24,000 nt of DNA from Nitrospirota bacterium (GTDB lineage: Bacteria > Nitrospirota > UBA9217), in the NCBI GenBank assembly GCA_963818475.1, contig CAWFSF010000005.1, positions 555,873 to 579,872 on the forward strand, read 5' to 3'. Under the pieces are notes generated by a model. It was not told the origin of the DNA. It was given only the letters and a program-made list of their open reading frames with translations, and searched no databases. How positions within the stretch are numbered: the stretch's first letter is position 1; the number at the start of each line of letters is the position of its first letter. Below, piece by piece: positions 13,949 to 16,204 of the stretch. The position numbers and the translations under genes are program-made.

Positions 13949-16204
13949 TTACAGCTTCGCGTCAGTAACGATGTCCGATTTCTTTATTGCATCGATGTAC
14001 GCGGGATAGCTCATGGTCATCGGAACAAAGTAATCGGCTGTCTGGCCCGACGCGCAGTAAACGATTTGCGCCTGCGCAGCTGCTGTAGTTGCGATCGTCG
14101 CATCATGGACCACAGTAGCATTAAACGTTGCAGTCGACACGTCGACATACCCGAGGTGGGTACGGCCGTTTAGTGCACCGCCTGACCCATCAGCCACAAT
14201 CGCCGAATAGTATACCCTCTTCGCTTTGGCATCATAGCGCACATCATGGAAATTGTGCGTTTTGTTAAGTGCGCCTATTTCTGAGGAGAGCTGGACCTTG
14301 TCTTTCGCCGTCACAACGATTTTGTTATCCGCGGTAGTGCCGGCCGGATTGATCGTCACTGCAACCCTGACAATATGTCCTCCGCCCGTTGACGCCATGT
14401 AGATGGTACCACTATAGGTGCCGTCATGGTTGTCCTTAATCGGGCCGTCAATACCGCAGGTCACATGGGCCACGGTGTCATTGTGGCATCCGCCGCAGGT
14501 GTTCACGGGATTGCCGACTGCGCCGTATTGTCCGGTCTGAATGTTATAGAGCTGGAGACCGCTGGTGTTTTGTGTTTCAGTTCCGTTTTTGTACCGCAGC
14601 GCAAGGAGGGCGTACTTGCCGTCCGGCGTGGGCATAACATCGTGGTTCTCGCCGCCGATCGCGGTGTCGTTGCTCAATTCCGACAGGTCCGTAGCGTCGA
14701 GCACAACCAGACGGTCCGCGCCAGCTTGAAGAATCTTGCTGCCGTCGGGCGTAAAGGTCGAACGGAAGGCGACTGCTGCCGAGGTCGTCGGCGATGTAGT
14801 CATCACACTTGAGGTGTTTACCGTGCCTGCAAGAATATCGCTCATTTTAAGCAAATAACCCGTGAAGTTGCCTGTCATATTATCGCCGACGCCGCCGCCA
14901 CCCGCTGTGGTCTCGTTCACCGCAACGTAGAGCTGTTTCGGCGTACTGGTCAGGGCCGCTCCGGTCTTCACCGTGTTTTTCCTGATAACATCGATGTACG
15001 CGGGATAGCTCATGGTCATCGGAATATAGTAATCAGCTGTCTGGGCCGACGCGCAGTAAACGATCTGCGCCTGCGCAGCTGCCGTGGTTTCGATCGTTGC
15101 ATCATGGACTGCATTGGAGGCTCCAATGTCGACATACCCGAGGTGGGTCTGGCCATTAACTGCTCCGCCGGCAGAATCGGCAACGATCGCCGAATAGTAA
15201 ACTCTATTCGTAGCAGCATCATAACGCACATCATGGAAATTATGTGTTTTGTTGGTTGCGCCGAATGTTGAAGTGAGATTGATCTTGGTTATCGCCCCCA
15301 CAGCGATTTCGTTACCAGTGTTTGTCGGGTCAATTGTCACGGGGACCCTGACAATGTGTCCTCCGCTCGTTGACGCCATGTAGATCGTACCGGTATAGGG
15401 ACCGGTACCGGTCAAGGGTCCGTCAATACCGCAGGTCACATGGCCCACGGTGGCGCTATTATGGCAATCGCCGCAGGTGTTCACGGGATTGCCGACTGCG
15501 CCGTACTGTCCGGTCTGAATGTTATAGAGCTGGAGACCGCTGGTGTTAAATGCTTCTGCTCCGTTTTTGTACCGCAGCGCAAGGAGGGCGTACTTGCCGT
15601 CCGGCGTGGGCATAACATCGTGGTTCTCGCCGCCGATGTTGGTGTCGGTGCTCAATGTCGCAAGGGTAGAACCATCGAGCACAACCAGACGGTCCGCGCC
15701 TGCCTGGAGGATCTTGCTGCCGTCCGGCGTAAAGGTCGAACGGAAGGCGACCGCTGCCGGGGTTGCCGGCGATGTTGCGATCACACTTGATGTGCTTACC
15801 GTGCCGGCGAGGACATCGCTCATATCGAGCAAATAGCCCGTGAAGTTGCCTGTCATATTATCGCCGACGCCACCGCCGCCCGCTGTTGTTTCGTTCACTG
15901 CAACGTAGAGTTTTGATTTGTCAGGGCTGTTGACGCCGTGAGCGTAAATATAGTCGGGGCTGGTTCTGAAGTCTGAGATCATGATCCTTTTGTAATCCGC
16001 CGGGCTGTTCACGCCGTGGGCGTAGATATAGTCTGGGTTGGTTCTGAAATCCGAGATCATGGTCCTTTTGAATAAAGTTGCTGCGCCGGGTCCCGGATCT
16101 GAACCGCCACCGCCACCACCGCCACAGTTTACGAGCACGGCGAGAGCCAGCATGAGGGACAGGCAAACAAGCACTGTCTTCTTCACAAAACTGTTGAGCT
16201 TCAT
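13949..16204 (-). CDS. Large lipoprotein with two tandem beta-propeller-like (lactonase/YncE-like) modules, each carrying a CXXCH motif
   Basis: The signal peptide and lipobox are LAVLVN-C, followed by a Gly7 linker. Two modules of about 326 aa (aa 99-424 and 425-751) are roughly 75-80% identical. Each contains LYVAVNETTAGGGGVGD, PDGSKILQAGADRLVVLD, PDGKYALLAL, NTCG(D/G)CHN (15461-15475 and 14483-14497) and THNFHDVRYD. A GGGGAGG Shine-Dalgarno precedes ATG 16204. Confidence 0.85.
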   Translation of the reverse strand: MKLNSFVKKTVLVCLSLMLALAVLVNCGGGGGGGSDPGPGAATLFKRTMISDFRTNPDYIYAHGVNSPADYKRIMISDFRTSPDYIYAHGVNSPDKSKLYVAVNETTAGGGGVGDNMTGNFTGYLLDMSDVLAGTVSTSSVIATSPATPAAVAFRSTFTPDGSKILQAGADRLVVLDGSTLATLSTDTNIGGENHDVMPTPDGKYALLALRYKNGAEAFNTSGLQLYNIQTGQYGAVGNPVNTCGDCHNSATVGHVTCGIDGPLTGTGPYTGTIYMASTSGGHIVRVPVTIDPTNTGNEIAVGAITKINLTSTFGATNKTHNFHDVRYDAATNRVYYSAIVADSAGGAVNGQTHLGYVDIGASNAVHDATIETTAAAQAQIVYCASAQTADYYIPMTMSYPAYIDVIRKNTVKTGAALTSTPKQLYVAVNETTAGGGGVGDNMTGNFTGYLLKMSDILAGTVNTSSVMTTSPTTSAAVAFRSTFTPDGSKILQAGADRLVVLDATDLSELSNDTAIGGENHDVMPTPDGKYALLALRYKNGTETQNTSGLQLYNIQTGQYGAVGNPVNTCGGCHNDTVAHVTCGIDGPIKDNHDGTYSGTIYMASTGGGHIVRVAVTINPAGTTADNKIVVTAKDKVQLSSEIGALNKTHNFHDVRYDAKAKRVYYSAIVADGSGGALNGRTHLGYVDVSTATFNATVVHDATIATTAAAQAQIVYCASGQTADYFVPMTMSYPAYIDAIKKSDIVTDAKL
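13952..15910. repeat. Intragenic tandem duplication, two units of about 978 bp
   Basis: Unit 1 is 14933-15910 and unit 2 is 13952-14932. Long stretches are identical at the DNA level, for example GCCGCAGGTGTTCACGGGATTGCCGACTGCGCCGTA.TGTCCGGTCTGAATGTTATAGAGCTGGAGACCGCTGGTGTT in both units. The shadow ORFs 14426..14812 and 15440..15790 are near-copies of each other. Confidence 0.85.
15917..16066. repeat. Two tandem 75-bp repeats encoding a 25-aa unit at the lipoprotein N-terminus
   Basis: They encode KRTMISDFRTNPDYIYAHGVNSPADY and KRIMISDFRTSPDYIYAHGVNSPDKS back to back. Confidence 0.85.

Follow-up and report, generated by a model that had tools for sequence, protein, structure and literature searches.

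In Geobacter, the outer-membrane porin ExtI is needed to reduce selenite and tellurite, and it is encoded in extHIJKL beside the rhodanese lipoprotein ExtH (PMC5877670). ExtKL is currently regarded as a polysulfide-reducing pentahaem selenoenzyme (PMC13510729). The ext clusters often exchange their outer lipoprotein, and clusters with extI only also exist (Otero et al. 2018, PMC6148476). Here, we analyse a locus with an ExtI-type porin in a 24,000-nucleotide stretch of DNA, hereafter the window, from a Nitrospirota bacterium of the GTDB lineage UBA9217 (assembly GCA_963818475.1, contig CAWFSF010000005.1, positions 555,873 to 579,872 of the forward strand). Its central gene (window positions 13949-16204, minus strand) encodes a double beta-propeller lipoprotein with one CXXCH motif per propeller. 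We give roughly even chances to the reading that this protein is a dihaem redox lipoprotein with an additional metal site in its hub, probably for copper, which would have the ExtI-type porin and a MacB-type ATP-binding cassette (ABC) module as its partners.

The window locus fits the lipoprotein-swap pattern of ext clusters, with a new lipoprotein type. It shares with extHIJKL of Geobacter sulfurreducens a unit of porin, lipoprotein and small accessory protein, and its porin passes the ExtI model. However, the lipoprotein of the window is a CXXCH double propeller, whereas ExtH is a rhodanese. In addition, neither the ExtKL/MccSep pentahaem selenoprotein nor the ExtM-S cytochromes are in the window, and an FtsX permease is attached instead.

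The propeller gene consists of two copies of a short segment (A) followed by two long modules (M), an order that we write as A-A-M-M:

13949..16204, minus strand: double beta-propeller lipoprotein gene, 751 residues, ATG start (open reading frame, AlphaFold2 model, homologue family)
16124..16204, minus strand: signal peptide and lipobox-like LVNC, residues 1-27, with Cys27 as the probable lipidated residue (sequence, aligned Cys of homologues)
16070..16123, minus strand: Gly7 tether and low-complexity linker, residues 28-45 (sequence; AlphaFold2 predicted local distance difference test, pLDDT, below 50 for residues 25-41)
15992..16069, minus strand: A1, first copy of the 26-residue two-strand segment (KRTMISDFRTNPDYIYAHGVNSP), which probably completes propeller 2 (direct repeat D5, 88% identical; model strands E45-49 and E59-66; chain connectivity and permuted homologues)
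15914..15991, minus strand: A2, the other copy of the two-strand segment, which runs on into module 1 (repeat; model strands E71-75 and E85-92)
14936..15913, minus strand: module 1, residues 98-423, body of propeller 1 (self-alignment, DSSP strands)
13949..14935, minus strand: module 2, residues 424-751 and stop, body of propeller 2 (self-alignment, DSSP strands)
15461..15475, minus strand: CGDCH, residues 244-248, predicted site of haem c attachment in module 1 (motif; C-Xn-CH kept across the family)
14483..14497, minus strand: CGGCH, residues 570-574, predicted site of haem c attachment in module 2 (motif; C-Xn-CH kept across the family)

The N-terminus reads MKLNSFVKKTVLVCLSLMLALAVLVNC27 and continues directly into GGGGGGG. 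The original prediction, made from the letters of the window, proposed a lipoprotein with a Gly7 tether, which is supported. The box itself is atypical, but at the Cys aligned with Cys27, single-module relatives have the canonical boxes FAGC, FSGC or SAGC, and the LVNC box itself recurs in P0003, the other A-A-M-M protein. The signal is of the Sec type without a twin arginine, which is compatible with periplasmic haem attachment.

The description of two modules of about 326 residues at 75-80% amino-acid identity, with long identical stretches of DNA, is also accurate. Modules 1 and 2 are identical at 251 of 320 aligned residues (78%) and at 82% of nucleotides, and the gene contains direct DNA repeats spaced 975-999 nucleotides apart with identities of 75-94%. 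The longest exact runs common to both modules measure 78, 41, 37, 36 and 35 nucleotides. As had been proposed, each module holds a single CXXCH and one copy each of VTCGIDGP, THNFHDVRYD, GGENHDVMPTPDGKY and IVYCAS; the CXXCH motifs at residues 244 and 570 are the only two among window reading frames of at least 80 residues. The original prediction did not mention the tandem 26-residue repeat A (residues 46-71 and 72-97; 69 nucleotides, 88% identical), which lies 5′ of the modules.

Structure prediction agrees with the proposed double propeller. An AlphaFold2 model of the full-length protein, built with 24 homologues, is all-beta with about six blades per module (pLDDT 83.5, predicted template modelling score 0.79); here and below, blade counts and residue placements in the models are read from DSSP strings. 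The single-module homologue P0011, 48% identical and modelled with 53 sequences, gave a pLDDT of 89.5 and 24 strands, which corresponds to six four-stranded blades. Foldseek searches of the PDB with both the full-length and the single-module models returned generic propellers only, at E values of 1e-8 to 1e-15 and template modelling scores (TM-scores) of at most 0.57. With the full-length model, double propellers were among the matches. The top hits in these searches were WD40 scaffolds.

Most single-module relatives, at about 415 residues, are circular permutants of the window's module: they start at TYTGTIYMAS and end just past CXXCH...CGIDGKL. In these permuted proteins the C-terminal PAYIDA strand continues into KRT..F and then FAHG.NSP, a run which identifies segment A as the outer strand of the last blade plus the inner, His-bearing strand of the first. 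In the window protein A2 abuts module 1, and module 2 follows directly after module 1 without an A of its own. This arrangement, read from chain connectivity together with the permuted homologues, leads us to infer a nested topology in which A1 completes propeller 2.

The original prediction also called the duplication recent, a claim that does not stand. Between the two modules, the Nei-Gojobori method gives a synonymous divergence (dS) of 0.41, a non-synonymous divergence (dN) of 0.14 and a dN/dS ratio (omega) of 0.35, which indicates purifying selection on both modules. The orthologous locus L072 has FtsX, AbrB, hgcA and hgcB downstream, as the window does, and its second module differs from that of the window by a dS of 0.30. 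Because the inter-module value exceeds this orthologous one, the duplication must predate the split between the two loci, and a recent duplication is ruled out. The first modules of the two loci differ by a dS of 0.66, above the distance of each to its own partner module, and local dS between the window's modules is 0.09 around the ENHD-to-CXXCH stretch and reaches 0.84. The module copies are thus partly homogenised, in patches. The two modules of P0003 are 86% identical to one another; their identity is 73% with the single-module P0004 and only about 55% with the window's modules, a pattern that indicates either concerted evolution or an independent origin. Further double members are P0025-28, P0032, L022 and L034, among which P0028, L022 and L034 are plain A-M-A-M tandems, and the same double gene as in the window is present in L072 and L073, which are independent contigs from other samples.

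The protein was originally said to belong to no characterised family, and this is borne out. Pfam and NCBIfam scans of the propeller protein and 53 family members found no family, only sub-threshold PD40/WD40 noise, and a profile search of PDB sequences found no relative, with nothing below E = 0.4. We found no description of the propeller family in the literature on the combination of propeller, FtsX, CXXCH and chaperone. The family is widespread but unannotated. Its close branch comprises 24 to 72 members, 131 proteins emerged from a profile search against 1.84 billion representatives, and a search seeded with a member from Ca. Manganitrophus reached at least 1140 clusters, none with a Pfam domain and all with the source-given names "hypothetical protein" or "uncharacterized protein". 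Carrier genomes belong mainly to Nitrospirota/Thermodesulfovibrionales, including Ca. Sulfobium and Ca. Manganitrophus MnB_6, with others in Desulfobulbaceae, Desulfurivibrionaceae, Anaeromyxobacter, Rokubacteria and one Betaproteobacterium.

Across this family, the following residues are near-invariant, as assessed down to 27% identity and numbered as in P0011:

C391, C394 and H395: haem-type motif
H64, H105, H229 and H344: histidines
C168 (with S170) and C405 (with G406): hub cysteines and their neighbours
R293 and K353: basic residues
D106, D299, D345 and D351: acidic residues

The C-Xn-CH motif is the most conserved feature of the family and occurs in nearly every full-length member examined, which favours haem c. 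Its Cys and His residues are fully conserved among 49 aligned members and equally in each of the 32 remote ones that were checked, and retention in essentially every full-length protein, remote ones included, argues that the motif is not there by chance. The spacing between the cysteines is mostly two, and three, four or six in a few members: CX3CH, CX4CH or CX6CH replaces CXXCH in the subclade of P0023, P0024, P0030, P0031, P0033 and P0038. The His always follows directly after the second Cys. By its DSSP-based placement, the motif probably lies on a D-to-A-type loop leading into an inner strand.

Six of the other conserved positions are distributed one per blade, with H105/D106, C168/S170, H229, R293, H344/D345 and C405/G406 on strands 4, 8, 12, 16, 20 and 24. 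Standard propeller topology would make these the inner hub strands, with the residues near the D-to-A-loop face. Two natural variants bear on how many sites are present. The remote member P0080 keeps CXXCH, H64 and H344 and loses H105, C168, H229, R293 and C405 together, and in the most remote group H229 is replaced by Cys. His/Cys exchange is typical of ligand positions. Together, these losses and this exchange point to a haem site and, separable from it, a ligand-like Cys2His2(+Arg) site.

Several described propeller proteins offer partial parallels. Cytochrome cd1 nitrite reductase, NirS, combines a propeller with haem c, holds a cofactor over its hub, and appears among the Foldseek matches (6tsi at rank 9, 1hzu at rank 21). 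However, NirS has eight blades, a non-covalent haem d1 in the hub and its haem c in a separate domain, whereas the window protein has about six blades per module; the TM-score is only about 0.4, and Cytochrom_D1 (PF02239) gave no Pfam signal in the propeller protein or the scanned family members. The predicted hub with invariant His recalls NosZ, as do operons in the family's distant branch with an ABC system, NosL and PCuAC. NosZ itself is seven-bladed, with seven His ligands and a CuA cupredoxin domain, and is served by an ABC system of NosFY with NosD. The ABC system of the propeller family is instead of the FtsX/MacB type, no domain follows the propellers, and the propeller protein has no Pfam or NCBIfam match to NosZ at E <= 1. 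Hydrazine synthase alpha of anammox bacteria joins a six-bladed propeller and c-type haem in a single polypeptide; its haems are in separate domains rather than in a blade loop, and sequence and Foldseek searches found no similarity to it. The zinc chaperone AztD, also a periplasmic propeller, acts together with an ABC transporter and was matched by Foldseek (6n01, rank 49, TM-score 0.40-0.45), but the structural match is weak, and AztD has no CXXCH and serves an importer via a substrate-binding protein. Aip1/UNC-78 (1nr0, Foldseek rank 17 with the full-length model) likewise has two propellers per chain; these are eukaryotic WD40 scaffolds at about 8-11% identity and without cofactor motifs. 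Assignment to NosZ, cd1 NirS or the six-bladed dehydrogenases of the pyrroloquinoline quinone (PQQ) type was rejected, since no model matched. The propeller protein resembles NosZ and cd1 only in the principle of a hub-bound cofactor.

The genes and signals around the propeller gene are as follows:

18271..18300, minus strand: sigma-70-like promoter candidate 5′ of the porin gene, 11 of 12 matches, a consensus match only
16900..18075, minus strand: ExtI-type outer-membrane porin, first gene of the unit (NCBIfam NF040900 porin_ExtI, Pfam Porin_O_P, synteny in close relatives)
16422..16868, minus strand: small lipoprotein, 148 residues, QGC lipobox (open reading frame; by synteny, in the slot of Big_2 Ig-like lipoproteins elsewhere)
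13898..13923, minus strand: strong intrinsic-terminator-like hairpin with a 10-bp stem, 8 GC pairs and a T tract, 26 nucleotides past the propeller stop
12557..13813, minus strand: FtsX/MacB-type ABC permease, true start probably Met17 at 13765 (Pfam FtsX; weak MacB, LolCE and DevC similarity)

The porin scores 405.6 bits against NF040900 (cut-off 150), aligning to model positions 16-403 of 403, and the permease scores 49.1 bits against PF02687, the FtsX C-terminal domain (cut-off 25.5), with MacB_PCD seen in its L072 orthologue. The 148-residue lipoprotein had no family match of its own in the Pfam and NCBIfam scans. No other cytochrome c was found in the window. The promoter-like site and the terminator-like hairpin bracket the porin, small lipoprotein and propeller genes, which appear to be co-transcribed. 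The FtsX permease gene may be transcribed separately or by read-through.

Beyond the window, the order porin, Big_2 Ig-like lipoprotein, propeller and FtsX recurs in close relatives. FtsX is the most conserved neighbour: of the 65 genome loci, 53 have a homologue, in most cases immediately downstream of the propeller gene; in 37 loci, from distant members, a LolD-like ATPase gene then follows. Genes for PCuAC (PF04314) occur in 10 loci; in 9 of these, the gene shares the strand of the propeller-FtsX-ATPase operon and directly flanks it. Genes for NosL (PF05573) and an FtrD-like protein occur in 8 and 10 loci, respectively. An additional metal site is favoured by the invariant His/Cys hub and by the presence of PCuAC and NosL genes in the operons of more distant family members. 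The two ideas raised originally, covalent haem c on the one hand and a metal site on the other, may both be right.

Other associations were seen in these neighbourhoods. Directly after the propeller gene, L026 (9619-10119) and L043 (9798-10265) encode a small exported protein with the Met-rich sequence MPSMPSMG, a possible Cu(I) binder that scores 20.5 bits against a YtkA threshold of 25.9. Manganitrophus-like Nitrospirota (L027, L052, L058 and L070; also L038 and L059) have a second operon convergent with the propeller operon, with genes for NosL, an FtrD-like (DUF2318) protein, an FtsX permease and an ATPase; it is similar to the ABC module in the P19 iron system of Campylobacter. In L003, L026, L043, L053, L063 and L068, the stretch just upstream of the ExtI-type porin gene holds, on the opposite strand, a PMT_2 glycosyltransferase-like gene. 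Several of these loci have an adjoining amine-oxidase-like gene, and L003 also has a B12-binding radical S-adenosylmethionine gene. Genes for sulfur-anion transporters recur within a few genes of family members, at L001 and L003 (SulP, TauE) and at L008, L035, L046 and L069 (YeeE/YedE, Sulf_transp).

On the reading that we prefer, the propeller protein would be Sec-exported and lipid-anchored in the cell envelope, probably at the outer membrane, with a flexible Gly7 tether bearing two six-bladed propellers. Each propeller would carry one covalent c-type haem at the CXXCH in the loop entering an inner strand. The inner strands would present invariant His, Cys, His, Arg, His and Cys with adjoining Asp residues, one per blade, and a nearby loop would add a further invariant His (GGH), creating a second site of the Cys2His2(+Arg) type. 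This site would most likely bind metal, with copper as the leading candidate. The nested A-A-M-M order, in which the first strand pair would complete the second propeller, would make the protein a covalent dimer. Its most likely role would be that of a redox-active lipoprotein partner of the porin, replacing the rhodanese lipoprotein ExtH of Geobacter, with a substrate that may be a small inorganic species passing the porin, such as chalcogen species or copper. The ABC module might serve in cofactor assembly or in mechanical coupling.

Several observations weigh against this reading. The box of the propeller protein, LVNC (16124-16135, residues 24-27), has a non-canonical Asn at position -1, and the CX6CH of P0023 and P0024 would be an unusual spacing for standard haem lyases to act on. 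The copper genes occur mainly in the branch that is 27-35% identical to the window's protein. Neither PCuAC nor NosL is encoded in the window or in the loci of its closest relatives, and the window has no copper chaperone gene and no ABC ATPase gene near the propeller gene. In the ExtI branch, the sole copper-type lead is the Met-rich protein with its sub-threshold YtkA match. The hairpin between the propeller stop and the FtsX start suggests that the permease is not strictly co-transcribed. Finally, ExtI has been linked only to selenite and tellurite reduction in Geobacter (PMC5877670), so the proposed substrate rests on analogy.

The strongest competitor, which we nevertheless consider unlikely, is a metal-binding propeller without haem. 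On this account, a copper (or zinc) site, or else a redox-active disulfide, would be built from CXXCH together with the hub His and Cys residues. The protein would then act in the periplasm as a metallochaperone, sequester metal as a partner protein or present substrate to the MacB-type ABC transporter, in a role comparable to that of AztD for a zinc ABC importer. The PCuAC, NosL and FtrD-like genes in or beside the operons of distant members are in keeping with such a role, as are the prominence of the FtsX permease among the neighbours, the rank-49 AztD match (TM-score 0.40-0.45) and the variable spacing (2, 3, 4 or 6) of the motif cysteines. Yet the His directly after the second Cys is invariant despite these changes in spacing, which is the signature of haem c ligation, and P0080, in keeping CXXCH while losing Cys and His residues of the hub, indicates that the two sites behave as separable units. 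Transporters of the MacB type, moreover, export or act as mechanotransducers and are not importers served by chaperones.

More doubtful still is a purely structural role, in which the protein would lack a catalytic cofactor, its cysteines would form structural disulfides, and it would either bridge the periplasmic domain of the FtsX/MacB permease and the ExtI-type porin as an adaptor in a trans-envelope machine or be the cargo of a dedicated Lol-like permease. A long Gly tether would suit bridging, propellers are common interaction scaffolds and WD40 scaffolds head the Foldseek matches, the order porin, lipoprotein, propeller and FtsX is conserved, and the permease is weakly similar to LolCE, MacB and DevC, with a LolD-like ATPase in the distant branch. 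Such a role does not readily account for 17 polar residues (four His, four Cys, Arg and several Asp) that are near-invariant at 27% identity on what are probably hub strands, a pattern expected of a cofactor or active site rather than of a surface for binding partners. Moreover, distant members are not lipoproteins yet keep all these residues, and the copper-chaperone genes are left without explanation. Tandem repeats of about 980 nucleotides can mis-assemble, but a double gene arising from assembly collapse or expansion, or one decaying as a pseudogene duplicate, is so improbable that we reject it, given modules that differ at 18% of nucleotides, an intact frame, an omega of 0.35, the same double architecture in L072 and L073 from other samples, and the other double members.

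Going beyond the preferred reading of a dihaem, hub-metal lipoprotein, we speculate that the family may be an unrecognised class of haem-copper oxidoreductases. In this extended proposal, to which we attach only a low probability, haem c would sit above a Cys2His2(+His, Arg) copper hub and the enzyme would be matured by a MacB/FtsX-type ABC mechanotransducer with PCuAC and NosL. The branch represented in the window would be exported as a covalent dimer to the ExtI-type porin, acting on chalcogen or other small inorganic substrates.

Elsewhere in the window, hgcA (10725-11708, minus strand) and an hgcB-like gene (10337-10642, minus strand) form a mercury-methylation gene pair. The hgcA product contains NVWCAAGK and scores 339 bits on NCBIfam NF040863 (cut-off 275), and the hgcB-like gene downstream of it encodes a 2x[4Fe-4S] ferredoxin with a C-terminal CCG. 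The same pair follows the orthologous propeller, FtsX and AbrB genes in L072. Downstream of hgcB, a gene at 8905-10227 (minus strand) encodes a 440-residue protein with a weak Omp85-family match only, and a 447-residue counterpart occupies the same slot in L072. An Rfam match to the cspA thermoregulator at 5735-6145 (minus strand; 79.1 bits against a gathering score of 78) overlaps a cold-shock-domain reading frame, so conservation of the coding sequence may drive it. The N-terminal and catalytic parts of an oligopeptidase F (peptidase M3) lie in separate reading frames at 6179-7024 and 7226-8014 (both plus strand), a split that could reflect a frameshift, a pseudogene or a sequencing error.

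The propeller family displays the evolutionary versatility of the fold: circular permutants exist in it alongside plain tandem doubles and a probably nested double whose copies appear to be held similar by gene conversion. If the proposed reading is true, the ExtI porin-lipoprotein module would extend beyond Geobacter, and the family would provide a second case, after NosZ-NosDFY-NosL, of an ABC system coupled to the maturation of a periplasmic propeller metalloenzyme. It would also present haem c tethered in a propeller blade loop over a His/Cys hub, an arrangement for which we know of no solved protein. Should the predictions of haem and hub metal both be true, these proteins would represent an unannotated enzyme family, of at least 1140 clusters, in anaerobic bacteria that cycle sulfur, metals and nitrogen.

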